64,000 nucleotides of DNA from Candidatus Saccharimonadales bacterium. GTDB taxonomy: Bacteria; Patescibacteriota; Saccharimonadia; Saccharimonadales; UBA10212. Made by a program: the position numbers and the translations under genes. Location of the stretch: assembly GCA_035480715.1 (NCBI GenBank), contig DATIHL010000015.1, positions 72,384 through 136,383 of the forward strand, in the 5' to 3' direction. Position 1 is the first letter of the stretch, and each line of letters opens with the position of its first letter. The notes below the pieces were generated by a model. It did no database searches, had not been told where the DNA came from, and saw nothing but the letters and a program-made list of their open reading frames with translations. Positions 15,081 through 64,000 of the stretch are shown here, piece after piece.

Positions 15081-15101
15081 TACCGCTATAGTATAACAAA
15101 A

Positions 15102-15130: not shown

Positions 15131-15168
15131 TATAGATAATAAATTATGACAGAGTAGGGATTTTGCCT

Positions 15169-15200: not shown

Positions 15201-15216
15201 ATGACATGTTGCGCGA

Positions 15217-16041
15217 TCAGCTCGCCCTCATGATCTGAGCTGGCTGAGCCGAAGGATGTCGGTAGTCCGCACGAACCTCCTCGATCTCCTCCTCGGTCAT
15301 GCCGAGCTTGAGACCGAGACACTCGACAGCCGCTCTGAGATCCTCGATCTGATCCACCGAAAGGAGAGCGTGGGTTCGCAGCTTCTGTTCCGGAAGACTG
15401 ACAAGTCTGCCGATAGTCCCGACTTCTCCAGCACGGATCGCTGCGGCGGTACCTCTCCCGAGTCCCGGCAGTTGGACTACAGGCCACTCAAGCACCTCTG
15501 CCGGCGATGGCTGCTGCCTCAGCTCCGCGACCTCGGCGTCGCGCCAGATCGGCTGCACTGCCCCCTGAAACCTGCTTTCACGGAACTTGGCGTCCGGGAA
15601 CCAGTCTTCAAATACCCGACAGGTGTAACGCGACATCCTCGGCTCGAGCTGTTCACCGAGGACCACCAGCGACACCAGCTCCAGCCAGTTCTCCGGAAGC
15701 TGCTCGAGTGACGTTGCGTTCTCGACCATCTCGGCGAGGAACGCGCGCACATCACTGACGAACTTGTCGCTGTCCATCCACTTGAGGATGGTGTGGTAGC
15801 TCTTGCGGGTATAGCGCCGGAAGATCTGGAACATCGAGTCTTCCTTGAACGGATGGATCCACCACATGTCGTCCGCCCCCAGACGCACGTCGATGATCTC
15901 GACCGTCTGAGCGTTGGCCTCGATGACCGCATCGTCATGCAAGTGCAACCTCTCCGGCGTATCAAGCGAGCAGCCGATCAACAGTACGATCGGCCCATCG
16001 AGCTCCGGGTACTGACTAAAATCCAAGTTCACTTGGATCAC
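15217..16041 (-). CDS. hypothetical protein with RpoA alpha-CTD-like (HhH)2 C-terminal domain, high-GC
   Basis: 274 aa, GTG start. The C-terminus VVQLPGLGRGTAAAIRAGEVGTIGRLVSLPEQKLRTHALLSVDQIEDLRAAVECLGLKLGM aligns position-for-position with E. coli RpoA CTD ([60 protein letters not shown]). The N-terminal ~190 aa is unassigned. Confidence 0.65.
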   Translation of the reverse strand: MIQVNLDFSQYPELDGPIVLLIGCSLDTPERLHLHDDAVIEANAQTVEIIDVRLGADDMWWIHPFKEDSMFQIFRRYTRKSYHTILKWMDSDKFVSDVRAFLAEMVENATSLEQLPENWLELVSLVVLGEQLEPRMSRYTCRVFEDWFPDAKFRESRFQGAVQPIWRDAEVAELRQQPSPAEVLEWPVVQLPGLGRGTAAAIRAGEVGTIGRLVSLPEQKLRTHALLSVDQIEDLRAAVECLGLKLGMTEEEIEEVRADYRHPSAQPAQIMRAS

Positions 16042-16298: not shown

Positions 16299-17378
16299 TT
16301 AGACTTTTTGGAGCCAGGCGTTGATAAATGGGTCGAGGTTGCCATTAAGCACTCCCTCAACATCAGATGTTTCGTAGCCAGTGCGTAAATCCCTCACCTG
16401 CTTATATGGATGCAGTACGTAGTTTCTGTCTTGACTGCCAAATTCGGTTGATTTGCTCGGTCCTTTTAGCTCAGCAAGGTCATTGACATGTTGCTGCAGC
16501 TGCAGCGCAGCTAGACGCGAGCGCAGGATGGCCAGCGCCGTTTCTTTGTTCTGCAGCTGTGAGCGCTCGTTTTGAATCGCTACCGAAATACCAGTGGGCA
16601 TATGGGTCACCCGGACGGCGGAGTCGGTGGTATTAACTGATTGGCCGCCGTGCCCTCCGGCGCGAAATACATCGATTTTAAGATCTTTTTCATCAATCAG
16701 AACTTCATCCGGACGCTCAATCAGTGGTAGAATTTCTACTTTAGCAAAGCTGGTCTCGCGTGAATGAGCTGTGTTGAACGGGCTCAAGCGCACTAGACGA
16801 TGCACGCCGCTCTCGCCCGCCAATTTGCCGTATAAAAAATCGCCGCCACTTATTCTAATCGTCGCACTTTTAATCCCAGCTTCTTCGCCGGCTGATTGGT
16901 CAAGGGTGCTAACATGTAAATTATTTTTTTCTGCCCATCGTGTGTACATTCTAAGCAGCATCTCGGCCCAGTCCTGTGCGTCTGTTCCACCTGCGCCGGC
17001 GTAAATACTTAGAACCACATCATGATCGTCGTATGGACCCTTAAATTTGAGGTCTTCTTTGAGCTCCTCATAGTCGTTTTCTAAATCAACCAGCTGTCTT
17101 TCTAGCTCAGTTTGCATGCTAGAATCGGCCAGTTCCGCCAAATCGGTCAGCTCTTTGGCAGATTTATGCAGCTTAAGCCACGGCCCAATTTTACGTTCAA
17201 GATCTGCGGCTTGCTTGCTAACCGTCTGTGCTTTGGCATTATCTTGCCAAAAATCCGCTTCGGCCATCTGATGATGAAGCTTCCTAAGTTCAGTTTCTTG
17301 CTCTTCAATATCGGTATGTACGTACATCGAATCGACATCAAAAAATAGTTTTTTGGCGCGTTGTTTTAGCTCTTCCAT
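16299..17378 (-). CDS. prfB: peptide chain release factor 2 (single uninterrupted frame)
   Basis: SPF tripeptide (RLSPFNTAHSRETSFA) and GGQ ([16 protein letters not shown]). Start taken at MEELKQRAKK (ATG 17378), 1 nt after the stop of the upstream M16 gene. The ORF-track extension to 17456 overlaps that gene. Confidence 0.9.
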   Translation of the reverse strand: MEELKQRAKKLFFDVDSMYVHTDIEEQETELRKLHHQMAEADFWQDNAKAQTVSKQAADLERKIGPWLKLHKSAKELTDLAELADSSMQTELERQLVDLENDYEELKEDLKFKGPYDDHDVVLSIYAGAGGTDAQDWAEMLLRMYTRWAEKNNLHVSTLDQSAGEEAGIKSATIRISGGDFLYGKLAGESGVHRLVRLSPFNTAHSRETSFAKVEILPLIERPDEVLIDEKDLKIDVFRAGGHGGQSVNTTDSAVRVTHMPTGISVAIQNERSQLQNKETALAILRSRLAALQLQQHVNDLAELKGPSKSTEFGSQDRNYVLHPYKQVRDLRTGYETSDVEGVLNGNLDPFINAWLQKV

Positions 17379-17379
17379 T

Positions 17380-18663
17380 TTATCTCCAAAGAGGCTGCAA
17401 TTGGTCGTACAATTTTTGAGAAAGCGTAGAATCAGTACCACCCAGAATCCCCACACTGCCCAGATCCTCGGAAAACATCTGCCTCATAGCCCTGGCCATA
17501 TCGGATTTAGTAACAGCTTTGATACGAGCCGGAATAGTGCGCATGTCTTCAACGTAACCATCAAAGAAATACCGGCCGTAGGCGCTAGCCACGCTGTTGA
17601 CGGTTTGCAGGGAGCGCTGGAAAGAACCTAGAGCGTATTGCTTGGCACCCTCCAGTTCTTTATCGTCAATAATGCCATTTTGGATCTTTTTAACTTCGGA
17701 CATAACGATATCGGACAGCGCCTGCGCATTTTCAGCCAACACTTGTGCGCTCAAAAACCACTCTGTAACCCGGTTTGAAAGATGGTGCCCCGAGCTCACA
17801 TGATAAACTAGGCCGCGATCTCGAGCCTGGCCAAAAATTTTTGAATAAAGTGTTTCTGTTAGCATGATGCGCGCTAGTCCCAATGCGTCGTCATCACGAG
17901 TAGAAATAATATCGTTTAAGTGCGTGCTGATTATCAGATAAATATTAGGCACTGTCTCATTAGCCACGAATACAGGTTTTTGCGGTTTTCTGGCTTTCTC
18001 TAGAGGTAGTTTGATGCGGCCAGGCCCTTTTGGCAGTTCGATTTCCTCGATGATTTTTTTAACTTCACTGCGCCTACCCCGCAGACTGCCGGCTATAACA
18101 AAGCGGATGTTTGACGCAAAATGGGTCTTTTTATAATGCTCGATTAGATCTTCCCTTTCGATATTCTTCATAAGATCAATGCGTTGACGGTCGGTGGCAA
18201 CATTGAAGCCAAATGATCTAGAAAGCTCGCTGGCCAGTTCGCGAAAGTGATTATTGGTATAGCTGGTGAGTTCGTCCCGGATGTTGCCGGATTCGGCGTC
18301 AAATTCCTGTTTTAAAAATAGCGGCTTAGTCAGACCCTTAAACAAAAGACCCAGTACGCGGTCCCATTCAAAGTCAGCCACTTCGCCGACATAAGAAACC
18401 GAATAATAGCTGGTGTAGGCATTACTATCAGCGCCGTTTTTTGATAGCTCTGATTGATATATTTGGCGGTCCGGGTAGTATTCATTAGCACCGGCAGCCA
18501 CTATGTGTTCCATTAAATGCGGCACTTCCCACTTGCGTTTCGGTACCAGAAATTCACCGGCCCTAAAATTGAGTTCATAACTTGTGACTGTAGCACCGGG
18601 AACATCGATTAGCAGCCCTTTGGCCCCATTCTTTAGCTCCACCTTATCAACTGTATGTTTCAT
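17380..18663 (-). CDS. M16-family (pitrilysin-like) zinc peptidase
   Basis: 427 aa. Inverted zinc motif HxxEH present (HLMEH). GGAGGAAG SD upstream. Confidence 0.8.
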   Translation of the reverse strand: MKHTVDKVELKNGAKGLLIDVPGATVTSYELNFRAGEFLVPKRKWEVPHLMEHIVAAGANEYYPDRQIYQSELSKNGADSNAYTSYYSVSYVGEVADFEWDRVLGLLFKGLTKPLFLKQEFDAESGNIRDELTSYTNNHFRELASELSRSFGFNVATDRQRIDLMKNIEREDLIEHYKKTHFASNIRFVIAGSLRGRRSEVKKIIEEIELPKGPGRIKLPLEKARKPQKPVFVANETVPNIYLIISTHLNDIISTRDDDALGLARIMLTETLYSKIFGQARDRGLVYHVSSGHHLSNRVTEWFLSAQVLAENAQALSDIVMSEVKKIQNGIIDDKELEGAKQYALGSFQRSLQTVNSVASAYGRYFFDGYVEDMRTIPARIKAVTKSDMARAMRQMFSEDLGSVGILGGTDSTLSQKLYDQLQPLWR

Positions 18664-25466: not shown

Positions 25467-25880
25467 TTAGCGGATGAACTCCGCGACGAGCCAAGCGACC
25501 AGCAGGATCGCGGCCGGCCTGGCAGCGGTGTCGAAGAACTCGACGCGCTTGCTCATCAAGCGGCCATGCATGGAACCCTTGAACACGCGCCAGGGGTTGT
25601 AGAGACGACCCTGGAGAGCATCGCTGACGAGCATGATGACGCCGAAGGCGCCAAGCACGACGAGAACGCAGTTCCAGTAGCCGTCGATCGGCCCGAGGCT
25701 GATCGCGCCGGCCAGCGGGTTCCACGTGTAGTACAGAACCGCTCCGAGCATGAGCGCAGAGACGAAGACCGCCGACACGAGCTGAACCTTGTCGAGGATC
25801 CACTTGAAGAGGCCGTCAAGTCCGTCGAACGGGTCGACAGCCGTCTCTGCTCCGTGAAACTGACCAACGTGCGTGGCCAT
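25467..25880 (-). CDS. high-GC small membrane protein (137 aa, about 3 TM helices)
   Basis: Start at MATHVGQFHG (ATG 25880) preceded by AAGGAGG 4 nt upstream. The ORF-track extension to 26030 runs through the promoter. 36/60 G+C in 25621-25680. Confidence 0.65.
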   Translation of the reverse strand: MATHVGQFHGAETAVDPFDGLDGLFKWILDKVQLVSAVFVSALMLGAVLYYTWNPLAGAISLGPIDGYWNCVLVVLGAFGVIMLVSDALQGRLYNPWRVFKGSMHGRLMSKRVEFFDTAARPAAILLVAWLVAEFIR

Positions 25881-25901
25881 GATTCCTCCTTGTAGAAGTT
25901 T

Positions 25902-25929
25902 GGTGCTCCCTATCGGTCGATAGGGCACC
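25902..25929 (-). promoter_or_regulatory. palindrome/hairpin in the 5' leader of the island-2 gene
   Basis: GGTGCTCCCTATCG-GT-CGATAGGGCACC (core 8-bp arms CCCTATCG/CGATAGGG), between the promoter and the SD. Confidence 0.45.
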
Positions 25930-25947
25930 AACCGATTTGGCAACCAG

Positions 25948-25976
25948 ATTATACAACTTTTAGACCATAAATGCAA
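25948..25976 (-). promoter_or_regulatory. near-consensus sigma70-type promoter
   Basis: Minus strand TTGCAT (25976-25971), 17 nt, TATAAT (25953-25948). Confidence 0.6.
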
Positions 25977-26028
25977 CAGCAAAATGCCGTCGTTTATTAT
26001 CAGACTGGCGCGGTACGGTACCCTGAAC

Positions 26029-26059
26029 AAAAAAGGAGCGTAAATTCCGCTCCCTTTTG
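26029..26059 (-). terminator. intrinsic terminator (bidirectional architecture)
   Basis: GGAGCG-7 nt-CGCTCC flanked by an A run and a T run. Minus-strand read: GGGAGCGgaatttaCGCTCCTTTTTT. Confidence 0.6.
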
Positions 26060-41192: not shown

Positions 41193-42354
41193 TAGTTATT
41201 AGTATAAACAGCGCCAAAAGCAGGGCCATACTGGCCCCCACAATACTTTCTTCTACTTTGCGGCTTAGTGGTCGGCGCAGTAGGCCGCGCGAAATCAAAA
41301 TCAAAAATAGGCGACCACCATCCAGCGCCGGGATAGGTAGGACATTCATCAGCGCCAATGTCAGCGAAATTATGGCGATTATCATCAATACAAAGTAAAT
41401 ACCCAGTGTGCCGCTCCCCCACAAAATGGCGCCAATCGCCACTGGTCCGCCCACCTGAGATGTGGCTTTAGTCTGGCCATTCTCGCGCGCTCGGTGGTTA
41501 CCTGTCAGGCCACCGGCGATTATGGAAGCCAATCCTGACAGAGCGTGTCCCAACCCCTGAAACGTCAGCACAAATAGCTGTTTAGTAAAGCCCAGCGCGA
41601 CAATCGGAGCGCTCCAGGTGCTGCGCCTAATCTGTAACTCAGTTGGCGAAATACCCAAATTGCCCTTTGGATTGTCAGATTTAATACTGGCTTGTACCTC
41701 GGCGGCGCTACGCAGTTTAACATCTTTAGTAACCAGCTGGTTGTTGTGTTTGTATGTCAGCTGGATGGCTTGCCCGGCGAAATCATGCGTGGCATCGTGC
41801 AGTTGTTGTACGTTTTTAATGCTTCGAACGTCCGAGCCGTTTTTGACCTGCAAAATTATATCGCGGGATGAAAGTCCGATTTTATCGGCTGGTGATCCAG
41901 GCTGAATATAGCCGGCGATCAGATCCTGGTGGGACACTTTAGTGTCGCTAGCTACCGTAAATTGATCCTGGCCAACTGAATCTTGCGTTAGCAGTTTGGG
42001 CATGCCAACAAGTGCTAGAATGGTCAAAAGCACCAAGCCAGTGATCAGATTCATAAATACACCCGCCAGTATTATCTTAGTCTTAGCCAGTAGTGAAGCC
42101 GCACCAAAGCTGCCGGACCTGGTGTCGGAATCGTTTTCTCCTTTGAGTTTTACAAAACCGCCTATTGGTAACCAGTTTAAACTGATAATCATGCCGGACT
42201 TTAGCTTTTTGCCCCACGCGCGCGGTGGAATGCCCAAGCCGAATTCTTCGGCTTTAACGCCGTTTCTTCTGGCTACAAAAAAGTGTCCCCACTCGTGAAC
42301 AATCACCAAACCGGCAAACAATACCAAACCTAGAATAAAAAGTAGAGTTTGCAT
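41167..42354 (-). CDS. rseP: RIP metalloprotease RseP (M50 site-2 protease) with PDZ
   Basis: 395 aa. HEWGHFFVARRNG zinc motif, PDZ segment, C-terminal NVLPIPALDGG. Confidence 0.9.
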   Translation of the reverse strand: MQTLLFILGLVLFAGLVIVHEWGHFFVARRNGVKAEEFGLGIPPRAWGKKLKSGMIISLNWLPIGGFVKLKGENDSDTRSGSFGAASLLAKTKIILAGVFMNLITGLVLLTILALVGMPKLLTQDSVGQDQFTVASDTKVSHQDLIAGYIQPGSPADKIGLSSRDIILQVKNGSDVRSIKNVQQLHDATHDFAGQAIQLTYKHNNQLVTKDVKLRSAAEVQASIKSDNPKGNLGISPTELQIRRSTWSAPIVALGFTKQLFVLTFQGLGHALSGLASIIAGGLTGNHRARENGQTKATSQVGGPVAIGAILWGSGTLGIYFVLMIIAIISLTLALMNVLPIPALDGGRLFLILISRGLLRRPLSRKVEESIVGASMALLLALFILITIVDVRRFL

Positions 42355-42383
42355 TCCCCTTAAGTATAACAGTCAGCCTGAGG

Positions 42384-42947
42384 CTAAACTGTAAGTATTT
42401 CTTCCTCTTTGGCTTTGGCTAGCTCGTCGACTTCGTTTTTTTGTTTGGTCAGTAGCTCGTCGACTTGTTTTTCGAAGCGCAGGCGTTCGTCTTTACCGAT
42501 ATCTTTGTCTTTTTCGGCCTGCTCGCCTCTATGAAACGCTTCGTGCCGAGCATTACGGGCAGAAATTAGGCATTCTTCGACTTTTTGGTGAAGGATTTTA
42601 ACCATATCCTGGCGGTTTTCGGTGGTCATTGGCGGCAGATTGACGCGCACCACCCGGCCGTCATCTGTAGGTGTTAGGCCTAATGATTGATCATTGCGAA
42701 TAGCGTCGGCTATAGGCTGCAAATTATTCGGGTCAAATGGAGTGATTTGCAGCAGTTGTGGTTCCGGCACAGCGATAGAGGCAATACTCTTGAGCGGCAT
42801 AGCTTGGCCGTAAGCCTCGACCATTACGCTATCGAGCATGCTGGGATGGGCGCGGCCGGTCCGGAGTTTTCTAAGTTCGTCTTTAAAATGAAAGGTCGCT
42901 TGGTCTAACTTGGTCTTTGTCTCGGAAACAATCTGATTGGGATTCAC
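42384..42947 (-). CDS. frr: ribosome recycling factor
   Basis: 187 aa, GTG start after AAGGAG. LRKLRTGRAHPSMLDSVMVEAYG signature. Confidence 0.93.
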   Translation of the reverse strand: MNPNQIVSETKTKLDQATFHFKDELRKLRTGRAHPSMLDSVMVEAYGQAMPLKSIASIAVPEPQLLQITPFDPNNLQPIADAIRNDQSLGLTPTDDGRVVRVNLPPMTTENRQDMVKILHQKVEECLISARNARHEAFHRGEQAEKDKDIGKDERLRFEKQVDELLTKQKNEVDELAKAKEEEILTV

Positions 42948-42989
42948 TCACAACTCCTTAAAACTTGTCTGGATACATTATAAGCTAAA

Positions 42990-43018
42990 TTGCAAATATA
43001 CGCCTTTTATGCTATGAT
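42990..43018 (+). promoter_or_regulatory. sigma70-type promoter of the mini-ORF operon
   Basis: TTGCAA (42990-42995), 17 nt, TATGAT (43013-43018). About 85 nt of leader before the first SD. Confidence 0.55.
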
Positions 43019-43109
43019 ATACGTCTAGCTAATGCCCTGCACGCTCAAGCGGGCCTGCCTAGCGGCAGTTTAGGTGTTGGCCCGTTCTTTACAACTTGGA
43101 GGAGAAAAA

Positions 43110-43202
43110 TTGGACTGGCCCCCCGTGGTTATGACCGCAGTCCTTGGCTTCGGGTTTCTTTACGGCATTTGGAAAAAAAGAAGGGAGAGAAAGCGCAAAT
43201 AA
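43110..43202 (+). CDS. mini-ORF a: 30-aa single-pass peptide with poly-basic tail
   Basis: TTG start 5 nt after GGAGGAG. (M)DWPPVVMTAVLGFGFLYGIWKKRRERKRK. The stop TAA shares its last A with the next ATG. Confidence 0.45.
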   Translation: MDWPPVVMTAVLGFGFLYGIWKKRRERKRK

Positions 43203-43309
43203 TGATCGCTGCGCTGACAACTACCTATTGGGCATTTCTGGCAACCTCGGTTGCTGGGCTGCTCATTGCTCTCTACCTCATGTTCCAACCAACGCGTCGA
43301 AGACGCTGA
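43202..43309 (+). CDS. mini-ORF b: 35-aa single-pass peptide with RRRR tail
   Basis: ATG in a TAATG overlap. MIAALTTTYWAFLATSVAGLLIALYLMFQPTRRRR. Confidence 0.45.
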   Translation: MIAALTTTYWAFLATSVAGLLIALYLMFQPTRRRR

Positions 43310-43319
43310 AAGGAGATCC

Positions 43320-43439
43320 GTGAATCTTCTAAAAGAGTTGTGGAAGCATCGTCCGCTGTGGGTGGTTTTCTTCACCAGCTGGCGATTCTGGCGCGACTAC
43401 GTCTTACTTCTTCGCAAAAGGGATAAGGAGGGCACGTGA
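43320..43439 (+). CDS. mini-ORF c: 39-aa Trp/Arg-rich hydrophobic peptide
   Basis: GTG start 5 nt after AAGGAG. (M)NLLKELWKHRPLWVVFFTSWRFWRDYVLLLRKRDKEGT. This is the 3' part of track ORF 43251..43439. Confidence 0.5.
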   Translation: MNLLKELWKHRPLWVVFFTSWRFWRDYVLLLRKRDKEGT

Positions 43440-43576
43440 TACGCCGATTCGTCGCAGCCAGGCTGTTGGGCTTGACGTTTGCAGCCTTGGCATTCATTCT
43501 CAGCCGGAAGTACGGCAAGAGGCAGTCGAACCGAAAAAGCCTGCGTGCAACCGTAGGCTGGAGAGAACCAAGGTGA
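43436..43576 (+). CDS. mini-ORF d: 46-aa single-pass peptide with long basic tail
   Basis: GTG in a GTGA overlap, AAGGAGG 5 nt upstream. (M)IRRFVAARLLGLTFAALAFILSRKYGKRQSNRKSLRATVGWREPR. Confidence 0.45.
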   Translation: MIRRFVAARLLGLTFAALAFILSRKYGKRQSNRKSLRATVGWREPR

Positions 43577-43671
43577 TTCTCGCGATTTCAGCCGAGATGC
43601 TTTTTAAGGCGGCCCTCATAGTAGCGGCGGGTCTTCTCGGAGCCTTGCTCTACTACCTGCTCAAACCCTAG
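43573..43671 (+). CDS. mini-ORF e: 32-aa single-pass peptide
   Basis: GTG in a GTGA overlap, GGAGAG upstream. (M)ILAISAEMLFKAALIVAAGLLGALLYYLLKP. Confidence 0.45.
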   Translation: MILAISAEMLFKAALIVAAGLLGALLYYLLKP

Positions 43672-43685
43672 CGAAAGGAGAGGCG

Positions 43686-43925
43686 ATGAAAATCGTAAAG
43701 TCAGTAGCTGAAGTTGTAATCGGGTTGGCCGTAATGATCCTGGGATTCCTCCTTATGGCAGGAGGGTTCGCGGCACTGATCAAAGCATTTGCCGATGCTG
43801 GTCCGGAGGTTCCGGTCAAGAGTCTCACACTTGGCCCCACGGCAATTCTCGTTGGTATCGGCCTATGGATCTCCCTGGTGGCGTGGGGAGAATCCCACGA
43901 CAAAACCGACCGTTCCAACGGATGA
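43686..43925 (+). CDS. mini-ORF f: 79-aa two-helix membrane protein
   Basis: ORF track; ATG after AAGGAGAGG. MKIVKSVAEVVIGLAVMILGFLLMAGGFAALI ... AILVGIGLWISLVAWG. Confidence 0.6.
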   Translation: MKIVKSVAEVVIGLAVMILGFLLMAGGFAALIKAFADAGPEVPVKSLTLGPTAILVGIGLWISLVAWGESHDKTDRSNG

Positions 43926-43986
43926 TCTCCTCAAAGAAGAAAGTCCTCGGTTTCAGTTGAGCTATGAGCTCCTGGTCGAGGCACGC

Positions 43987-44010
43987 AGCCCCGCACAAGC
44001 GGGGCTTTTC
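43987..44010 (+). terminator. intrinsic terminator of the mini-ORF operon
   Basis: AGCCCCGC-ACAA-GCGGGGCT followed by TTTC. Confidence 0.65.
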
Positions 44011-44022
44011 AATATCCGAAAT

Positions 44023-44040
44023 TACTTAACAGGTTAAGTA
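44023..44040. repeat. P palindrome copy 5 (TACTTAAC-AG-GTTAAGTA)
   Basis: Perfect 8-bp arms, 1 nt from the tsf stop codon (44042-44044). Confidence 0.8.
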
Positions 44041-44041
44041 T

Positions 44042-44506
44042 TTATTCCACTTCGCCGAGTGCCATACGGGAAAAACGACGAACAACAATGTTTTCACCCA
44101 GTTTGGCGATATGCTCTTTGACGTAGTCAGCAACGCTGATTTCTGGATTTTTGACAAATGGCTGCCCTAGAAGCTCATCAACGTCCTCTGCTTCGGTGGC
44201 GGCAATATGCAGCGTTAAATCTTTAACCAACTCTTTAAATTCGTCGGTTTTGGCCACAAAATCAGTCTCGCAATTAACTTCTATTACTACGCCAATGCGG
44301 CCGTCGTGCGAATAAGTACCGATCAGTCCTGCTCTGGCTTCGCGCTCACCGCGCTTTTCGGCTTTGGTCAAACCCTTTTTGCGCATCTCGGCCAATGCTT
44401 TATCGAAGTCGCCGCTAGCATCCACTAAAGCCTGCTTGGCGTCAGTTATTCCAACACCAGTAAGCTCTCGCAGCCGCCTAATTTCATCTATAGGTATGTC
44501 TGCCAT
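44042..44506 (-). CDS. tsf: elongation factor Ts (very short form)
   Basis: 154 aa. N-terminal UBA-like IRRLRELTGVGITDAKQALVDASGDFDKALAEMRKKG and part of the core domain. Confidence 0.85.
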   Translation of the reverse strand: MADIPIDEIRRLRELTGVGITDAKQALVDASGDFDKALAEMRKKGLTKAEKRGEREARAGLIGTYSHDGRIGVVIEVNCETDFVAKTDEFKELVKDLTLHIAATEAEDVDELLGQPFVKNPEISVADYVKEHIAKLGENIVVRRFSRMALGEVE

Positions 44507-44507
44507 C

Positions 44508-45341
44508 TTAGCCTATCCCCCTTACTGGTTCGATTTTGGCCGGCTCTTCCGGTTTAGGTTCATCTGTTTTCGTCTCTTCAGCAGCAGCTTCAGACGCCGG
44601 CTTTGTTTCTACTTTGGTCTCTTTTTCCTCAGCCGGTGCGGCTTTTTTAACTTTTGCCTGCCCGTCTTCAATCGCCTGTTTAACATAATCAAGTATCAGA
44701 TTAATAGTCTTTGTAGCGTCGTCATTGCACGGAATCGGGTAATCAACCAATGAGGGGTCGGCATTGGTATCAATTAACGCTACTACGGGTACATCGAGCT
44801 TTTTAGCCTCGCGGACCGGAATATCATCTGTTAAAACATCGACTATAAAAACTGCGCCTGGTTTGACTGCCATGTCTTTAATGCCGCCATAAATATGGTT
44901 CATCTCGTCAATTTCTTCCTGGAAGCGCTGCACTTCCAGCTTGCTGTATTTAGCGGCCAATTCGCCATTGGCCATGCGAGTTTCTAAATCTTTAAGATGT
45001 TTAATCCGCCCGCCGATCGTTGGTTGGTTGGTTAACATGCCGCCCAGCCATCTTACAGTTACATAGGGCATACGAAGCGCCTCAGCCACTTCTTTAACCT
45101 TATCCTGAGCCTGTCGCTTGGTGCTGACTAGTAAGATCTGCTTACCAGCGGCGGCCGTCTCGGTCAAGAAATTTAGCGCTTCTTCCAATGCAGTGACTGT
45201 TTTAGTGAGATCAATAATATGATTGCCGTCACGCTTGCTATGAATATATGACGCCATTTTTGGGTGCCAACGGCTGGTTTGATGCCCAAAGTGAGCACCG
45301 GCTTCTAAAAGCTTCTTAATATCTACATCGACTTTCGCCAA
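44508..45341 (-). CDS. rpsB: 30S ribosomal protein S2 with Lys/Glu/Pro-rich C-terminal extension
   Basis: 277 aa, TTG start. LLEAGAHFGHQTSRWHPKM signature. Confidence 0.93.
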   Translation of the reverse strand: MAKVDVDIKKLLEAGAHFGHQTSRWHPKMASYIHSKRDGNHIIDLTKTVTALEEALNFLTETAAAGKQILLVSTKRQAQDKVKEVAEALRMPYVTVRWLGGMLTNQPTIGGRIKHLKDLETRMANGELAAKYSKLEVQRFQEEIDEMNHIYGGIKDMAVKPGAVFIVDVLTDDIPVREAKKLDVPVVALIDTNADPSLVDYPIPCNDDATKTINLILDYVKQAIEDGQAKVKKAAPAEEKETKVETKPASEAAAEETKTDEPKPEEPAKIEPVRGIG

Positions 45342-56631: not shown

Positions 56632-59600
56632 CTAATTGCCAGTAACAATCAACTGGTCAAGGGTTACAGTGTTTTGCGAGGCACTAGCGCCCCATGTAGG
56701 ATAGATGTAGAGATTTTTGGCGGTGGTCGATGTAACAGTGGTGCTGGTTGTAGACACAACCGGAAAGCTACCCAAAGAAGTGGTAGAAGCAGCCGTGGTT
56801 TGGTAATTGTAAATACCTTGGCCATTCATTGAAGTGGTAGAGAAACAAATAATTGTAAAATCAAGTGACCATAATTGGTTTGACGCCCCGTTGGCGCCCG
56901 CTATTGCCGGGGTATCAACACCTATTTTAGTATCATTTCCTCTAGTTGTAGCATCGGTGCCGTAGTAAACGCTCATGCCAAGTGTTGGGGTGTTAGTATT
57001 GCTCCAGTGGCCTTTTGCCATAATATGGATGGCTCTTCCGGCCTGGCAATAGTTGGCAGGTATGGGAGCGGCGCTATTAAAGGCTGCGCAGGCAGTGGTG
57101 CAGCTGGCTATAGTATTGCCGGCTGGGATCGATGTATTAGAGTACAACAAGCCATTACATGTAAGCCAAGAGCCGGCCTGGCCGCACATAAAGTTGTGAT
57201 CACTCGCACTATAGAACATGGCGCCATTGATTACCGTGGACGGCGCATTTGTAGCCGTTCCGGCGTTAAAGGTCGAATTACTATCGCTATCAAGCACCAA
57301 AAGCTCGCCAGCCGTCTCGCCAGTCGAACCACTACCGACAATCACGTTAGCATTAGATGTATCAACCGTCAGAATAGCAGTGCCTGAAGAATTCTGTACC
57401 TGCAAACCAGTGGTGGTATCAGCTTGGTTCTTAAAGGTCACCGGGTTGGTAACGGTACCGTTAAATTGCAGCTTGCCCTCATAGTAGGAGTTAACAGTCG
57501 AACCAGACTCCAGCAACACGCCATCCACATAGAAGGCCGGAGTCCTGGCAGTGCTATCGCTTTGGCGGATAAATATGTAACCACCGGTGGTAACCGTACT
57601 GGTCGTGAAGGTACATGAATATCTGGCCCAAGTAGTAGTAGCCGAGGAGTTGTTCAATGTACAGGTTGATTCGCCGGCAAAGGTGTCATTATCAGCCCTA
57701 CCGGCTTGGATCGTAACTGTTCCGCTACCAGAGCGCGCCCAGAAACTTAAGGCGTAATTCGTAGAGCTGCTTAATAAGGTTGCAGTATCGTATTTAGCCC
57801 CAGCGTTGGTGGTAGCAGAGGTATTAATAGCTAAGGATTTATTGCCCACTATTTGGGCGGTACTACTACTGGATACCGAGCCGCTACCTGTATTGATTGC
57901 CCAGTTAGTAGTATCTGTTTCAAAGCTGGCGTTACCAACCAGGTTGTTATTGGTAGTATCGGCTAGGAATAAGTTGTTGTTGCCAGATGTGTTTTGTATT
58001 TGGAAGCCGGTGGTCGAGTTGCTGGAGTTCTTAAACAATGCCGAACCATTGCTTTGAGAGAAGGTGGCGATGGTACTGCCGTTGGTTTTCAAATTCAAAT
58101 CATAGGCGTCATTAGTGCCAAGGTCGGCCGTTGCGCCAAAGCTGTTGCCATCATCAACAAAGGCCGATAGAGTAGCATCTCCGGCACTTAATACGCGGTT
58201 GGCCTGCAAGAAACTACCGGCCTGCACAGTAGTGTTACCGACAGTGGCAGAGGCTTGAGCGAACTGAAATGTTACAGTTTGAGCAGTTGAGCCGTTGACT
58301 ATTATGCCCATTAGCTCGTACTCGTCCGAGAGATTGTTTGCAGCCTGGTTGTTTGGGCTTTGGTTAGCGCTACAGGCAATATTACTTTCGGTTTTGGCAT
58401 TTTCGAAGTCACCATATCCCCACGTACAAGATGTTGTTGACTGCGGCACATCAAAGTGCCACTTCCAACCGGCAGTGCGTGCAGCACTGACGAGGCTAAG
58501 TACAAAGCGGAAGTTCCAGGTCTCGTTGGCGCCAATTGAGAACTTGAGAGCCGTATCGCTGACTAGGGTAGTTGAGTTGTTAACACTTTGGTCCGAGGAT
58601 TTCACCTGGTTGACCACCGGGTTTACACTTAAGTACTGGGTGGTCATGGACTTCCAGGTTGAACCGTTGTAGCCTTCGAAATCGGTACCGGTCCAGCGGA
58701 TAGTACCAGCGTTAGTATTAGTGGTAGTACCAATATTTATAGCGCCATTTACCTGTAAGGTTTCATTGGGCGTTGATGAAGTGCCAACCCCGAGTTTACC
58801 GTTAACCTGAGTGTAACCGGCAATCGACGAACCTATATTAACTCTAGTGGTCGAGCCTGAGGTGGCACTGGTACCGATATTGATGGTCTGCGTGTTACCA
58901 TTACCCGCTGAAGCGCCAATAGCAATGGTATTAGTGGCAGTGGAATTTCCTAAAGTTATGCCCCCCGTGTTATTGGATGTACCAATGGTATAGGTGGCTG
59001 AGGCAGCACCCTGGACCGTAAAGGATGTTGTGTTAGTAGTACCACCGATAGTAACTCCGGTCGCCGTAGAAGTACCGACGCTCAAAGCGCCGGAAACCGA
59101 ATCAAACAAGGCGCTTGTAAAGCTGGTATTAGCCTGTCCGCTGCCAGAAATTCGGAAGTCGGCTGTTTGGTCAGATGTGTTCTGGTTTTCTATCGATGCG
59201 CCACCGGCACCGGCAAACTGCCAAGAAGCCCCGCCGTTAGTGTTGGACCAAACTAGCGTGCCGGTGCTGCCCGGAGGAATTCTGATGCCGCTAATTGTGA
59301 AATAATTACCTGTAGCTGCAATATTTGCTATGTAAATCGTACGCCCATAGGTTGTGCTGGCTGTTGGCGTTGGGATTGTATAGGCTCTACCCGATGCTGA
59401 AGGAGCAATACTAAAGCTGCTGTAGATATTGACAGTGGAGGCAGCTGAGCCTATGGAACCAGCAGATAAATCTCCTAGGGCTAGGGTGGTGTTAACGGTA
59501 GCACCATTGTTAGTTACAGTCCCAAACCCAGCCGCATTACCTAGTAAGATTGACAGACCGGCCGCACCTTGCAAGGTAATCGTCGATGTATTGGTGGTGC

Positions 59601-62600
59601 CTCCAATTGTCACACCGGTGGCTGTTGTAGTGCCGACGTTCAGTCCACCGGTTATGGAATCGATCAACGGCGTGGTGAAGCTAGTGTTCGCCCGGCCAGT
59701 GCCGGAAATTCTAAAGTCAGCTGTTTGGTCGGCCGTATTCTGGTTTTCTATTGATGCACCACCCGCGCCAGCAAATTGCCACGAGTCACCGCCGTTAGTA
59801 TTTGACCAGATTAATGTACCGGTACTGCCCGGAGGAATTCTGATACCAGCAATCGTAAAGTAATTACCCGCTGCAGCTATGTTTGCTATATAAATCGTGC
59901 GGCCGTACGATGTGCTCGCTGTAGGTGTGGGTATCGTATAGGCTCTAGCTGATGCCGTTGGAGCGATACTAAAGCTTGTATAAATATCTACAGTAGAAGC
60001 AGCTGAGCCGATTGAACCTGCGGCTAAATCTCCCAGAGCCAGGGTACTATTAAGTGTAGCGCCGTTATTAGTCAGCACGCCCGAGCCAGCGGCATTACCC
60101 AGAGTAGTATTCGCGTTTCTGACTGTAAACGTACCAGTGGTAGCACCCATAGAGATAGATGTGGCTGCTTGCAGCAATGTAACAGTTGTGGCAGTAGAAT
60201 TGAACAGCCCTAACGTCGATTGGTTAGTAGCGACTGTGGCGGCATTAAGATTAATATTACCGCTGCCAGACTGGATGGTGGTGGCTGAGGTACCGCTCGT
60301 CGAACCAAGTACAGTCGAATGGTCGGTGCTGTTATTACCAAATCCACAGGTACCGGTACCACACTGGATGGATACAGCACTGGTAGTGCCAGTAGCGCCG
60401 ATAGTGATGGTACCGCCGGAGCCTTGGGTTATGCTAATGGCACTGGCGCCGGTGCCACCCTGGATGGTGGTTGCGCTGGTGCCTAGTAGATTACCGATTA
60501 CAATGGTATCAGTCGAAGAAGCTGTGGCATTATTGCCAATATTAATAGTTTGGGCTATCGCATTGGCAGTATTACCTACTTGAACAGTGTTAGCCGCATT
60601 AGCCGTAGCGATGTTGATGGTACCGGATGTAGCGGATTGGATAGAGACAGCGCCAGAAGAATTGCCGCCTTGCACGGTGACAGTAGAGGCCGCCGCGTTG
60701 TTAGAGCCGATGGTTATAACAGAGGTATTAGTGCTAGTAGCACCAGCACCTATGGCGATGCTATGAGATGTCGAGGAATTGCCAATAGCGATAGAATTGG
60801 CGCCTGTGCCGGCATCTACAGTTACTGCATTACCAGCATTACCGTTAGAACCTAGCGTTACTGTTTGGGTCGAGTTAGCGCTGGTATCGGCAATATGTAT
60901 AGTTGTATCTTGGGCTGTCGAGCCAACAGATCCAATATTGATCGTTTTACTGGCTACGGCATTAGTTCCCAAATTAATTGTTCCCGAAGCAGCCGTTTGC
61001 AGTGCTAGTGTTCCAAAGGCCTGAATGGTAGTGTTACCGCTGGTTGCACCCGTAAAGGCACCGATGGTCACATTAGTAATGCCAGCGGCGGTGAGATTAC
61101 CGATATTAATAGCTTGAGTATTGCCGGTATTTGTAGAGCTCGTGCCAATTTGAACAGTATTAGCTACGGCATTACTTCCAACCCCAATAACACCACCGGA
61201 AGCTACTTGTAGGCCAAGGGTCGTGTTGCTGCCATTAACACCAGCCTGGAGGGTAAGCGTGGAAGTAGAAGCTGTCGAGCCAACAGTTGCAGTTTGGGCA
61301 GCATTGCCTGTAGCAAAGTTGGCTACTCGAGCCTGTGCACCTGTGCCGATATCAATCTGCCCAGTACCCGAAGAGATGGTAACCGTAGGGTTAGAAGTGC
61401 TATTGCCGATTTGGATAGCTTTGGCGTTGGTATTGCCAATATTAACTGTTGGCGTACCAGAAGTAGTTGTACCAGTGTCAATGGTAACATCTCCACCTAC
61501 CCCCGTGCTGCTAGCGTTACCAGAAGTAATTGAGATCGCACCTGATGTTCCTGATGTAACTGCCGCAGTTTGCAAACTTATACCGCCGGTTCCACCTTGC
61601 AAACTTAAAGAGCCGGCAGAATCACTGGTCTTAACCGTAAGATTACCTGAATCGGTCTGCCAGGTAGATGTACCGTGAGCCGTAACATTGAGCGTTTGGC
61701 TTGCTGCCGCACTTATGGAGTTTGTAGAAGCTGCCGTAAATGTTAACGCTGAAGATGTTAGCACGGTATTTCCGCCAATCTGATAAGACCCAGCTGTGGT
61801 GTTGAAATTGCCCGACCCTGTAACGGTCGTACCGCCGGAAATGCTGCCCACTAAAACTAAGTTGCCACTGGCATCAACGGCGAATTTTGAAGTTGGTGAA
61901 GCTCCAGCCTGCAGATCAATCAAATTCCCGGTTGGTGCCGCATTAGTATTTGAAGCAAATATTAAGGCATTGCCCGAACTTGGATTGCCAGATGCTGTGA
62001 CTTTGAGAGTATTACCAGTATTAGTACCGTTACTAAGGCTTAAAACAGTACCAGTTGAGGCACTGGAAGAGTTAGTGAAGCTATATAAAGTACCGGCGCC
62101 TGCAGCGGCTGAAGACGTATCTGTGGCATTCTTGGCCAAGTATGAGCCTGAGGCCTGGTAGCCGGTACAGACTGAACCGGTTGAGCACAATGTGCCGTTT
62201 TCGGCTGGTAGGTTTAGGGTGTATGCAGTACTGCTTGGAGTCAGGGGTACAAGGCTGATTGAACCTGTTTGGCCAGAGAAGTTGAACTTTAGATCACCGG
62301 TCACGCCAGATGCACCACTGTTGCCTAGCACAGCTATACCACCTGACGTATCAACAGATAGGATGTTCTTGGCACTGGTGTTTTGGACCTGCAAAGTGGT
62401 AGTGCCGTTACTAGCGGCCTTTAGGGTGGTGTCACCAAAGACCTTGGCCAGTTTGTCATTGCCATTGACGCCAAAGACTTCAGCATTACCACTAGATATA
62501 ACCTGGAAGGAGTCTTCACCGGTAACATCTGAACCATTTTTTACTACTACTCCGTGGGTGTTGTTGCCTTGCAGGAATATATTGCTGGTGGCTAAGATAA

Positions 62601-64000
62601 CGCCATTGTTGTCTAGGGACAAGACTGCTGTGCCGCCGGAGGCAGCAAAAGTAAAACCGGCATTACCAGTCCCGTCGCCGATTGAGACAGTATTACCTGA
62701 GGTGTCAACGTTGAGTAAATAATTTCCCCCAGAATTCTGCACTTGGAAAGCAGTTGTCGTATCGGCCGTATTTTTAAACAAACCAGCCCCATTAACAGTC
62801 AGATTGCCCGAACTATCGGTTGTGGGTGCGCTGCTAGCATCACCAGCTAGGCCAGTATCATCCAGAGTCAGACCTCTTACTGTGCCGATTAAACCGGTAG
62901 TACTGGGTGTACCCCCAGCAGTAATACGGTAAACTTTGTAAGACACCGCACCCGTTACGACACTCCAAGTCAGATGATTGTAAGTCGTAGAATTAAGAGT
63001 TGAGCCATCGCTGGCAGAAATAGATGTAGTGCCTGAGGCAGCCGTCTCACCGCCTGAAGCCGAGACAGCTGTAATCTTATATGACCAGTTGGTGGAGGTC
63101 GTACAGCCGGAAGCCGAAGTTACACATGTAATCGTTGGAGCACTAGGCGTAGATAATGCATTAATTGTTGTACCGCCTGATAGGCCACCAGCTAGGCTAA
63201 TTGCTCCTTGATAATACGAAGACCCAGTTACACTCAAATTACCGTTGGCTTGGAGACTTTGGCCGACTGATAGGCCGCCTTGAATATTGAAGTCGCCAGC
63301 CACTTGGCCATTAGAGTCTATTTGAAGTGTGCCAACCTCTGCGCCACCAGCTTCTAGTTGCTGCGTGTAGGCACCTCCCATGTCATAAGTTACAAGGGCA
63401 CTAGTGCTGTAGCTAGTTACATAAGCATAGCGGCCGTTGACCCAAACGTATTGGGGGTTGGATAAGCCAGCAGAAACCGTACCTATCGAAACCAGGTTAT
63501 AAGGGTTATATACATCAACAACATTAAGTGTTCCGCCCGAATTGCTAGCCACATAGGCATACCTGCCTTGTAAATACACCCCCTCGGCATTGCCAATACC
63601 TCCTATAGAACCTATTTGCGAGGGGCTAGCGGGATTACTGACATCAAAGCTTACCAAAGAGTTGCCTCCCCAGTTAGATACATAAGCGTAACGGCCCTGG
63701 ACATAGACACCGTAAGAATTATTTAGCCCAGTAGATATGTTGCTTACCTCTGTTGGGTTAGCGGGATTTGATACGTCAATAATCGTTAATGAACTACCGC
63801 CGTTGGCTATATAGGCATAACGGCCCTGGACGTATATATCCTGAGGTCCATTTAAACTACCGCTTATAGTACTAACCATGGTTGGGCTGGCGGGATTAGA
63901 TACGTCAAATGTAACCATGGTATTGGCTGAAACATCGACTACGTAAGCATAGCGGCCTTGGACATACACATCATACGGACGGAATAGGCCAGTAGATATA
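56632..64000 (-). CDS. giant cell-surface protein, 5'-truncated by the window (>2,445 aa): LVIVD-type beta-propeller repeats, FN3-like module, long Thr/Ser/Gly/Asn/Ala repeat region, CBM4/9-like domain, Cys-containing C-terminal domain
   Basis: The frame stays open to position 64000 (upstream of the track's M: ...YDVYVQGRYAYVV). The (Y/V)VQGRYAYV motif repeats at ~42 aa period over 63370-64000. The CBM-like segment runs NLVGNASFETDTTNW ... FYVDGVLLESG (about 57500-57950). Almost no charged residues across most of the length. Confidence 0.85.
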   Translation of the reverse strand, partial: ISTGLFRPYDVYVQGRYAYVVDVSANTMVTFDVSNPASPTMVSTISGSLNGPQDIYVQGRYAYIANGGSSLTIIDVSNPANPTEVSNISTGLNNSYGVYVQGRYAYVSNWGGNSLVSFDVSNPASPSQIGSIGGIGNAEGVYLQGRYAYVASNSGGTLNVVDVYNPYNLVSIGTVSAGLSNPQYVWVNGRYAYVTSYSTSALVTYDMGGAYTQQLEAGGAEVGTLQIDSNGQVAGDFNIQGGLSVGQSLQANGNLSVTGSSYYQGAISLAGGLSGGTTINALSTPSAPTITCVTSASGCTTSTNWSYKITAVSASGGETAASGTTSISASDGSTLNSTTYNHLTWSVVTGAVSYKVYRITAGGTPSTTGLIGTVRGLTLDDTGLAGDASSAPTTDSSGNLTVNGAGLFKNTADTTTAFQVQNSGGNYLLNVDTSGNTVSIGDGTGNAGFTFAASGGTAVLSLDNNGVILATSNIFLQGNNTHGVVVKNGSDVTGEDSFQVISSGNAEVFGVNGNDKLAKVFGDTTLKAASNGTTTLQVQNTSAKNILSVDTSGGIAVLGNSGASGVTGDLKFNFSGQTGSISLVPLTPSSTAYTLNLPAENGTLCSTGSVCTGYQASGSYLAKNATDTSSAAAGAGTLYSFTNSSSASTGTVLSLSNGTNTGNTLKVTASGNPSSGNALIFASNTNAAPTGNLIDLQAGASPTSKFAVDASGNLVLVGSISGGTTVTGSGNFNTTAGSYQIGGNTVLTSSALTFTAASTNSISAAASQTLNVTAHGTSTWQTDSGNLTVKTSDSAGSLSLQGGTGGISLQTAAVTSGTSGAISITSGNASSTGVGGDVTIDTGTTTSGTPTVNIGNTNAKAIQIGNSTSNPTVTISSGTGQIDIGTGAQARVANFATGNAAQTATVGSTASTSTLTLQAGVNGSNTTLGLQVASGGVIGVGSNAVANTVQIGTSSTNTGNTQAINIGNLTAAGITNVTIGAFTGATSGNTTIQAFGTLALQTAASGTINLGTNAVASKTINIGSVGSTAQDTTIHIADTSANSTQTVTLGSNGNAGNAVTVDAGTGANSIAIGNSSTSHSIAIGAGATSTNTSVITIGSNNAAASTVTVQGGNSSGAVSIQSATSGTINIATANAANTVQVGNTANAIAQTINIGNNATASSTDTIVIGNLLGTSATTIQGGTGASAISITQGSGGTITIGATGTTSAVSIQCGTGTCGFGNNSTDHSTVLGSTSGTSATTIQSGSGNINLNAATVATNQSTLGLFNSTATTVTLLQAATSISMGATTGTFTVRNANTTLGNAAGSGVLTNNGATLNSTLALGDLAAGSIGSAASTVDIYTSFSIAPTASARAYTIPTPTASTSYGRTIYIANIAAAGNYFTIAGIRIPPGSTGTLIWSNTNGGDSWQFAGAGGASIENQNTADQTADFRISGTGRANTSFTTPLIDSITGGLNVGTTTATGVTIGGTTNTSTITLQGAAGLSILLGNAAGFGTVTNNGATVNTTLALGDLSAGSIGSAASTVNIYSSFSIAPSASGRAYTIPTPTASTTYGRTIYIANIAATGNYFTISGIRIPPGSTGTLVWSNTNGGASWQFAGAGGASIENQNTSDQTADFRISGSGQANTSFTSALFDSVSGALSVGTSTATGVTIGGTTNTTSFTVQGAASATYTIGTSNNTGGITLGNSTATNTIAIGASAGNGNTQTINIGTSATSGSTTRVNIGSSIAGYTQVNGKLGVGTSSTPNETLQVNGAINIGTTTNTNAGTIRWTGTDFEGYNGSTWKSMTTQYLSVNPVVNQVKSSDQSVNNSTTLVSDTALKFSIGANETWNFRFVLSLVSAARTAGWKWHFDVPQSTTSCTWGYGDFENAKTESNIACSANQSPNNQAANNLSDEYELMGIIVNGSTAQTVTFQFAQASATVGNTTVQAGSFLQANRVLSAGDATLSAFVDDGNSFGATADLGTNDAYDLNLKTNGSTIATFSQSNGSALFKNSSNSTTGFQIQNTSGNNNLFLADTTNNNLVGNASFETDTTNWAINTGSGSVSSSSTAQIVGNKSLAINTSATTNAGAKYDTATLLSSSTNYALSFWARSGSGTVTIQAGRADNDTFAGESTCTLNNSSATTTWARYSCTFTTSTVTTGGYIFIRQSDSTARTPAFYVDGVLLESGSTVNSYYEGKLQFNGTVTNPVTFKNQADTTTGLQVQNSSGTAILTVDTSNANVIVGSGSTGETAGELLVLDSDSNSTFNAGTATNAPSTVINGAMFYSASDHNFMCGQAGSWLTCNGLLYSNTSIPAGNTIASCTTACAAFNSAAPIPANYCQAGRAIHIMAKGHWSNTNTPTLGMSVYYGTDATTRGNDTKIGVDTPAIAGANGASNQLWSLDFTIICFSTTSMNGQGIYNYQTTAASTTSLGSFPVVSTTSTTVTSTTAKNLYIYPTWGASASQNTVTLDQLIVTGN
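58987..60102 (-). repeat. in-frame tandem duplication (2 x 558 nt / 186 aa) inside the giant gene
   Basis: Unit starts: LGNAAGSGVLTNNGATLNSTLALGDLAAGSIGSAASTVDIY at 60102 and LGNAAGFGTVTNNGATVNTTLALGDLSAGSIGSAASTVNIY at 59544. The units are collinear and highly similar throughout. Confidence 0.85.

Follow-up and report, generated by a model that had tools for sequence, protein, structure and literature searches.

A putative operon of six small membrane-protein genes in a clade-specific slot between tsf and frr of Saccharimonadales

The stretch of DNA analyzed here (64,000 nt of contig DATIHL010000015.1 from a Candidatus Saccharimonadales bacterium; hereafter the window, to which coordinates refer) raises the question of what is encoded by a kilobase located between tsf and frr, on the strand opposite to both genes. 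A preliminary description had proposed an operon of six small membrane-peptide open reading frames (ORFs, a to f), and its supposition that the organism was a bacterium of the candidate phyla radiation (CPR) agrees with the affiliation to Saccharimonadales. The reading held here with moderate confidence is that this cassette would be a genuine, independently transcribed operon for six small integral membrane proteins, located in a dedicated slot between tsf and frr specific to one clade, a single Saccharimonadales lineage, the slot being a miniature hypervariable island of the replacement type.

The six reading frames and their setting

The promoter, leader, six ORF lengths, Shine-Dalgarno (SD) sequences, TAATG, GTGA and GTGA junctions and terminator of the preliminary description were all present in the sequence (Table 1). 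A GGAG-type SD was located 4-12 nt 5' of every one of the six starts, and consecutive ORFs either overlapped or were separated by 10-14 nt. Six tiled SD-led ORFs were obtained in none of 2000 dinucleotide shuffles (maximum 4), nor were five SD-led ORFs with a hydrophobic segment (0 of 2000, maximum 2), and the minus strand of the cassette contained one such SD-led ORF. A codon model trained on 16,153 codons from the genes of the window preferred the proposed frame over the others for every ORF except d (five of six), strongly so for f, and for the whole set the proposed frames led the five other frames by 16-60 nats. The presence of six real, SD-led, coupled small ORFs, more than chance would give, was confirmed, and the sequence supports the self-contained, translationally coupled small-membrane-peptide operon that had been proposed.

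The predicted products bear the hallmarks of small integral membrane proteins. By hydropathy, one transmembrane segment was found in each of a, b, d and e, two in f and none in c, and the isoelectric points (pI) of a to d were 10.5-12. The architecture previously described for most of the products, a hydrophobic segment followed by a basic tail, applied to a, b and d and, as regards the membrane segments, to e and f, but c departs from it. No similarity was detected among a to f in pairwise comparison (no internal paralogy). The earlier count of four ORFs under 60 amino acids (aa) was correct for the mechanical ORF track, in which the frame of c extends to 62 aa, but five of the six products are shorter than 60 aa. 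Gene callers had predicted f alone of the six, in agreement with the expectation that most of the ORFs would be missed by routine annotation; a to e were never called as genes, since a search of 5.8 billion proteins with the concatenated a-e sequence did not retrieve even themselves.

Table 1. Features of the cassette and its two boundary genes (positions in the 64,000-nt window).
Feature	Positions	Strand	Remarks
frr (ribosome recycling factor; PF01765)	42384-42947	minus	left slot boundary
Putative sigma-70-type promoter	42990-43018	plus	TTGCAA-17-TATGAT, TG-extended -10; divergent from frr
5' leader, about 85-90 nt	43019-43109	plus	hairpin, conserved core, then SD GGAGGAG
ORF a, 30 aa	43110-43202	plus	TTG start; MDWPPVVMTAVLGFGFLYGIWKKRRERKRK; one transmembrane segment; C-terminal flank +7
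ORF b, 35 aa	43202-43309	plus	ATG in TAATG overlap with the stop of a; one transmembrane segment; tail QPTRRRR, +4
ORF c, 39 aa	43320-43439	plus	GTG after AAGGAG; Trp-rich, amphipathic, no clear transmembrane segment; tail LRKRDKEGT
ORF d, 46 aa	43436-43576	plus	GTG in GTGA overlap with the stop of c; one transmembrane segment; long basic tail, +8
ORF e, 32 aa	43573-43671	plus	GTG in GTGA overlap with the stop of d; one transmembrane segment; ends LLKP
ORF f, 79 aa	43686-43925	plus	ATG after AAGGAGAGG; two-helix membrane hairpin
Putative intrinsic terminator	43988-44011	plus	8-bp GC stem, loop ACAA, TTTTC; convergent with the end of tsf
tsf (elongation factor Ts, EF-Ts; short 154-aa form)	44042-44506	minus	right slot boundary

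Nucleotide similarity to relatives ended at about 42936-42946, near frr, and picked up again at about 44019-44052, near tsf; the neighbors of the slot were frr, rseP, tsf and rpsB. The promoter was the sole promoter-like site given by a consensus scan of 42300-44600, and its -35 (TTGnA) and -10 boxes were kept in alignments with relatives. The leader hairpin (CGGGCC...GGCCCG around CTGCC/GGCAG) was accompanied by a core sequence (TTGGCCCGTTCTT, 43077-43089). The terminator hairpin (AGCCCCGC-ACAA-GCGGGGCT, 43988-44007) folded at -17.2 kcal/mol; it was passed over by a simple terminator scan, 4 T being counted after the full stem. The G+C content of the cassette was 53.8% vs. 46.8% for the whole window, of which it is the second G+C-richest kilobase, and the local values given previously (34/60 for 43441-43500 and 23/60 for 14041-14100) were exact. 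The G+C at third codon positions (GC3) was 0.61 vs. 0.46 for the genes of the genome. No second cluster of mini membrane ORFs of this kind was found elsewhere in the window.

A repeat search gave, as possible mobile-element boundaries, short two-copy repeats only. A direct repeat with 13 of 15 identical positions was shared by the leader hairpin (CGCTCAAGCGGGCCT, 43042-43056) and the terminator hairpin (CGCACAAGCGGGGCT, 43992-44006), 950 nt apart, and is probably due to chance, though its copies bracket the variable part.

The tsf-frr slot across the clade

Relatives of the window were retrieved by means of frr (80 species-level genomes and 80 metagenome contigs of Saccharimonadales, 160 loci, denoted by L-numbers); the clade was defined as the loci with an frr at least 62% identical to that of the window, and counts were made on non-redundant loci. 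SD-led small transmembrane ORFs were present in the tsf-frr gap of 28 of the 44 clade loci (two or more in 21 of 44) vs. only 2 of the 83 more distant loci, none of which had two or more (Fisher p = 1.2e-14). Seventy-two of the clade gap ORFs were opposite to frr, and 4 were on the frr strand. As in the window, the gaps contained runs of small ORFs (1 to 6 SD-led ORFs per species, several pairs in 4-nt overlap), and nearly all of their products combine a basic C-terminal flank with a single hydrophobic helix or two such helices. The median length of the cassette peptides of up to 80 aa (n = 74) was 43 aa, and their mean net charge was +0.2 over the N-terminal 10 residues vs. +1.4 over the C-terminal 12. 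The slot is clade-wide and position-fixed, not a one-off insertion, which was overlooked in the preliminary description.

The tsf-to-frr gap ranged from 3 to about 2750 bp across relatives, and was shorter than 150 nt in roughly half of the related loci. The cassette is accessory, because in some clade members the slot is empty, its 27-91 nt containing only the -10 box of frr. In three relatives with an empty site (L097, L115 and L017), just 6-8 nt separated a TATAAT box from the ATG of frr, suggesting that the frr mRNA of these genomes is leaderless; the frr of the window is preceded by a 29-nt leader that includes AAGGAG. In bacteria, pyrH normally sits between tsf and frr; it was absent from this position in L017, L042, L034, L041, L058 and many other loci. 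A pyrH remnant in the gap was considered and rejected: the minus-strand frames were without similarity to anything among the matches listed, and many relatives have adjacent tsf and frr. EF-Ts was 154 aa long in the window and close relatives (about 459 nt in tblastn), and more distant Saccharimonadales had a form of about 195 aa (585-594 nt), both forms being far below the 283 aa of the E. coli protein.

Longer genes were also located in some slots. A 115-aa membrane protein, about 57% identical among L004 (5594-5941), L006 (2862-3209) and L007 (5499-5846), was encoded on the frr strand directly upstream of frr, and in L004 it displaces the mini-ORF cassette away. A CDP-alcohol phosphatidyltransferase (212-231 aa, with multiple transmembrane segments) was encoded opposite to frr, within the cassette operon, in L011 (1753-2448), L018 (4683-5336) and L021 (4929-5567). 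These transferases matched best the models for archaetidylinositol/phosphatidylinositol-phosphate synthases (E down to 5.6e-37), and the small cassette ORFs accompanying them had a GC3 of 0.75-0.83 (transferase excluded) vs. 0.55-0.62 in the flanking genes; the transferase may be a lipid head-group gene from a high-GC donor.

A gene of this length could be the origin of a to f, if these were frameshifted remains of one longer membrane-protein gene such as the transferase of L011, L018 and L021. The alternation of the reading frames (0, 2, 1, 2, 1, 0) and the long stop-free overlapping frames of the cassette would agree with such an origin. However, each piece has its own SD and start, the homologues of f are intact genes of 70-72 aa (see below), and operons of several mini-ORFs are usual in 21 other loci. 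In addition, the comparison of the cassette frames with the long gap ORFs of relatives (phmmer) gave at most about 5 bits among the matches listed, no product of the six ORFs had a Pfam match above the cut-off, and no continuous longer homologous gene was found in the 160 related loci or among 5.8 billion proteins, so that the test for a frameshifted pseudogene suggested in the preliminary description was negative. This origin is highly improbable.

In L106 and L016, the last SD-led ORF of the cassette encoded a “mini-pilin” of about 40 aa (at 495-620 and 601-720 of the gap, counted from the side of frr), shorter than known pilins. Both of these peptides end in GWW and contain little beyond the prepilin N-terminal methylation motif and a hydrophobic helix, and they matched the Pfam N_methyl (E 2.7e-6), GspH, PilA and ComGC models. 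The cassettes might then provide the type IV pilus or the competence machinery of Saccharibacteria with accessory subunits, either mini-pilins or proteins like pseudopilins, but just 2 of 86 cassette peptides (window and relatives) were pilin-like, no pil or com genes adjoin the slot, and neither an N_methyl match nor a G|F(T/S)LIE prepilin motif was found in any of a to f, making this function quite improbable for the window. The lipid-synthase and mini-pilin ORFs, present in relatives and not in the window, would fit a membrane/envelope theme.

The interiors of the cassettes were largely unrelated to each other. In an all-against-all comparison, a cross-locus match was found for just 13 of the 110 listed SD-led ORFs (86 of them flagged as transmembrane), forming six small families, one of which consisted of f and its homologue L084_4. 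Two close pairs of loci were informative. On the tsf side, L010 and L094 were 94% identical over 2065 nt, and on the frr side 86.5% identical over 1281 nt, both flanks being free of gaps, and their interiors (about 630 nt) were unalignable except for a 65-nt island at 97%; the flanks of L094 and L096 were 91-92.5% identical, and their interiors had no detectable similarity. These comparisons point to replacement of the cassette interior by recombination rather than to gradual divergence, and by analogy with them we infer replacement of the cassette of the window as well. Three contigs of the same population as the window carried identical cassettes.

In 21 of 24 loci, GC3 was higher in the cassette ORFs than in the core genes that flank them (mean difference +0.11, Wilcoxon p 4.5e-5). 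Import from donors richer in G+C would agree with this excess, and so would GC-biased gene conversion if the slot is a hot spot of recombination; a “host-derived” cassette, prompted by the raised GC3, is only a possibility.

ORF f was the sole member of the cassette with homologues. The exact protein was found only in one NCBI “Candidatus Saccharimonadales” metagenome-assembled genome and three Logan contigs, the latter carrying the same cassette without any difference. An exhaustive HMMER scan of 1.84 billion representatives gave two true homologues, P0002 (72 aa, 54% identity, E 3.8e-11) and P0003 (70 aa, 49% identity), and word-indexed searches of 5.8 billion proteins with f and with a profile of its family gave nothing beyond f and these two relatives. 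Both are intact small genes, with ratios of nonsynonymous to synonymous substitution rates (dN/dS) against f of 0.41 and 0.33 respectively. An AlphaFold2 model predicted a helical hairpin for f (H2-38 and H45-77; predicted local distance difference test score, pLDDT, 68), with a conserved loop, AG(P/S)EVPVxSLTLGPTA, at the helix turn. A 925-bp contig (L084) had the same leader, followed by three unrelated mini-ORFs and then by the f homologue L084_4. The second homologue (L085, 573-785) has its own SD and terminator, is not located between tsf and frr, and sits after a 112-aa soluble ORF without a Pfam hit on record; the f module would therefore move between contexts. In Pfam, f aligned to 51 of the 67 positions of DUF3098, a family of small proteins of Bacteroidota with two transmembrane segments and the same two-helix hairpin build (20.7 bits, E 3.1e-4, under the 25-bit gathering cut-off); the match is probably a mere likeness between hydrophobic helices.

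No homologues of a to e were found in the 160 related loci or in a word-indexed search of 5.8 billion proteins (concatenated query), and a metagenome scan for closer relatives gave an frr 81% identical at best, with an unrelated cassette. The reading-frame conservation asked for in the preliminary description was seen for f, with its two intact homologues, but not for a to e. In three other cross-locus peptide pairs, dN/dS was 0.23-0.40, and selection appears to be purifying wherever it is measurable.

This turnover bears on a further alternative, in which the conserved promoter and leader drive recombined GC-rich DNA that yields pervasively translated hydrophobic proto-genes, mostly without a selected function. 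Such proto-genes would account for the complete orphan status of a to e, for the extreme turnover and sometimes empty slots, and for the lack of a coding signal in d. Nevertheless, each ORF has its own correctly spaced SD, three junctions are overlaps of 4-5 nt, the 72 ORFs of relatives are organized likewise with a strand asymmetry of 72:4, and dN/dS is 0.23-0.41 wherever homologues exist. Proto-genes of this kind are considered an improbable explanation of the cassette as a whole.

Leader conservation and database searches

The frr-proximal end of the cassette was homologous across species, including the -35 and -10 boxes, a GTCAAYG box, the hairpin, the core, the SD and the first start. The core, as TTGGCNCG(C/T)(A/T)CCTT, and the GTCAAYG box were found in about 20 relatives. 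A profile of the leader (nhmmer) gave 17 matches in about 1.2 Mb, all of them in tsf-frr gaps and all opposite to frr; it matched the window at 43045-43109 (E 2.7e-5), and also loci outside the set used for its construction. At the other end, the tsf-proximal ends of the cassettes of relatives showed GC hairpins and T runs. The regulatory ends thus defined appear to be conserved and vertically shared within the clade.

The leader hairpin was much more stable than those of shuffled sequences in L084, L010 and L008 (z -3.3 to -4.5). U-rich tracts were located directly 3' of the hairpin in L021, L008, L004 and the window (43084-43092), and the leader of L021 (GAACGAGC-UUUG-GCUCGUUC followed by U7) resembled an intrinsic terminator inside a 5' untranslated region. 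The leader may act as a transcription attenuator. A role of the CCTT box as an SD-sequestering riboregulator was also considered and dropped (SD pairing 0.63 vs. 0.61 with shuffled upstream sequence). No match in the window reached the gathering threshold of Rfam, and the leader had no match even at E up to 10.

The six peptides were searched against Pfam and PHROGs, and the 86 cassette peptides of the window and relatives against Pfam, NCBIfam, PADLOC and PHROGs. No small transmembrane peptide gave a match above the cut-off in any of these collections, in line with the earlier failure to place the six in a family. The only real family matches among the 86 were the CDP-alcohol phosphatidyltransferase of three relatives and the prepilin N_methyl motif of two. 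The PHROG matches that were traced to members corresponded to one pilin-like ORF and two transferases, all in cassettes of relatives; two further weak matches, to phrog_16377 (E 0.0044) and to phrog_7793 (E 0.0089), have no member assigned to them. No match to the cassette was found in viral contigs, phage records or plasmid records by DNA and protein searches, and no endolysin, integrase or exporter gene adjoins it. An integron array does not describe the locus either: no room for attC was available between the ORFs, no repeat family was found, and no integrase-sized ORF was present in the gap or the immediate neighbors.

These searches bear on two alternatives, the first being that a phage or plasmid fragment inserted at a hot spot left genes for membrane-active peptides with a toxic or lytic function (similar to type I toxins or holins), which would depolarize or permeabilize the membrane of the producer or of a host. 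Toxins of the Ldr/Fst/BsrG type and class III holins consist of one hydrophobic helix and a charged C-terminal tail. This build is shared by a, b and d; a, b, d and e (30-46 aa, one transmembrane segment) also correspond to the definition of small hydrophobic toxins (under 60 aa), the G+C and GC3 of the cassette deviate from the rest of the genome, and the site is a variable hot spot. By contrast, the absence of similarity to viral contigs, phage and plasmid records and PHROGs, and of endolysin, integrase or repeat boundaries, with core genes as neighbors, does not favor an element-borne origin, and the phage or holin cassette of the preliminary description, which also lacks a lysin gene nearby, was not substantiated. 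Type I toxin genes are monocistronic, unlike the six coupled cistrons of the cassette, no minus-strand promoter-like site was detected in 42300-44600 (although a consensus scan cannot exclude one), and the homology of the promoter and leader across species indicates a resident locus rather than an element-borne one. A toxin or lysis cassette is consequently regarded as unlikely.

The second alternative is that the cassette encodes a multi-peptide bacteriocin of the leaderless or double-glycine type, together with small immunity proteins, and differs from strain to strain as does the pneumococcal blp region. The tandem cationic ORFs of 30-46 aa (pI 10.5-12 for a to d) and the hypervariable content between conserved flanks are reminiscent of such loci. 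The peptides are nonetheless predicted to be transmembrane anchors, with their charge clustered at the terminus, rather than amphipathic helices; a double-glycine leader was not visible and the six had no mutual similarity. None of the adjoining genes encodes an ABC exporter, a C39 peptidase or a regulator, and no Pfam or NCBIfam bacteriocin model was matched. We consider a bacteriocin locus very unlikely.

Three other regions of the window deserve mention. The G+C-richest kilobase (15001-16000, 58%) holds a 274-aa ORF (15217-16041, minus strand), flanked on one side by a gene for an ftsE-like ABC ATPase (14397-15080) and on the other by prfB (16299-17456). Several ORFs overlap there on the two strands, and the 274-aa ORF may be another foreign insertion between core genes. 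A 187-aa ORF with multiple transmembrane segments (25467-26030, minus strand) lies in a kilobase of 52.5% G+C, above its surroundings, and a single 2445-aa ORF (56632-63969, minus strand) reaches the end of the window.

Proposed role and comparison with known systems

If the cassette is an operon of small integral membrane proteins in a replacement slot, its conserved flanks would let recombination renew the interior of the island. According to the positive-inside rule, the peptides would insert N-out/C-in into the cell membrane of a monoderm epibiont, where they could work together, forming a small hetero-oligomer or serving as accessory subunits. Such a set might alter the properties of the membrane or the surface, with phages, hosts or kin exerting the diversifying pressure.

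Several observations weigh against this reading. The flanking DNA of the nearest relatives was just about 70% identical to that of the window, and replacement of the window's cassette is therefore indistinguishable from extreme divergence. ORFs a to e have no homologue anywhere, and therefore no selection can be demonstrated on each of them singly; the codon model did not favor the frame of d. The leader fold of the window was no more stable than shuffles (z 0.11), RNAalifold on a MAFFT alignment of leaders gave no consensus structure, and SD sequestration by the leader was no better than in shuffles (0.63 vs. 0.61), though CCTT is conserved. Classical replacement islands span tens of kilobases and encode glycosyltransferases, pilins or flagellins, in contrast to a single kilobase of mini-ORFs. 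A surface or membrane-identity role is drawn from analogy only.

A more far-reaching and tentative proposal is that the slot could be a fixed “expression slot” (promoter, leader RNA and terminators) taking swapped, unrelated mini membrane proteins. This would be a previously undescribed, kilobase-scale membrane or surface identity locus of an obligate epibiont, tuning host range, phage susceptibility or kin recognition, with the leader as a new cis-regulatory element; we regard it as possible, though rather doubtful.

Saccharibacteria attach to actinobacterial hosts that actively defend themselves (for example PMC13622651). Very little is known about which components of the epibiont envelope vary under host defense. 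The slot is a compact hot spot at a fixed position, and its conserved leader allows it to be found by a profile search, even though the proteins escape routine annotation (one of the six ORFs ever called). If the peptides matter for interaction with hosts or phages, the cassette would provide a natural strain-identity marker, a defined target for deletion or swapping in the now genetically tractable Saccharibacteria, and a case study of the birth and exchange of small membrane proteins. If they are functionless, the slot would still be a clear case, within a reduced genome, of a hot spot for recombination where GC3 is raised.

Among the known systems, type I toxins (Hok, Ldr, Fst, TisB, BsrG) resemble the cassette products in their size (under 60 aa), single hydrophobic helix, charged tail and structured 5' leader, and in being usually unannotated; the cassette differs in its six coupled cistrons, fixed position and conserved promoter, and in having no predicted antisense promoter. 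Leaderless bacteriocins (aureocin A70, garvicin KS) are likewise encoded in operons of 3-4 tandem cationic, unprocessed peptides of about 30-35 aa, but these are amphipathic and similar to each other, and are accompanied by exporter and immunity genes, whereas the cassette encodes unrelated, putative transmembrane anchors. KdpF, AcrZ, MgtS and CydX also have 30-50 aa, cross the membrane once and carry a basic flank on the cytoplasmic side, and they act by binding larger membrane complexes; they are encoded by single, conserved genes linked to the operon of their partner, unlike the six unrelated, hypervariable ORFs of the cassette, which have no partner gene. A paper on “hypervariation” in a CPR genome (PMC6851277) was set aside as not comparable, being about a repeat protein.

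The locus is akin to replacement islands and to small membrane proteins, and is not demonstrably a new mechanism. Replacement flexible genomic islands (Lopez-Perez et al. 2014, PMC4033161) share with it the same chromosomal position, non-homologous content of one functional kind, conserved flanks, replacement by homologous recombination and envelope-associated products. They differ in size (10-100 kb vs. about 1 kb) and in varying between strains of one species, whereas the slot varies between species of a CPR clade; the slot, for its part, holds mini membrane ORFs only (plus a lipid head-group transferase in three relatives), and a shared promoter and leader would drive whatever content is inserted.

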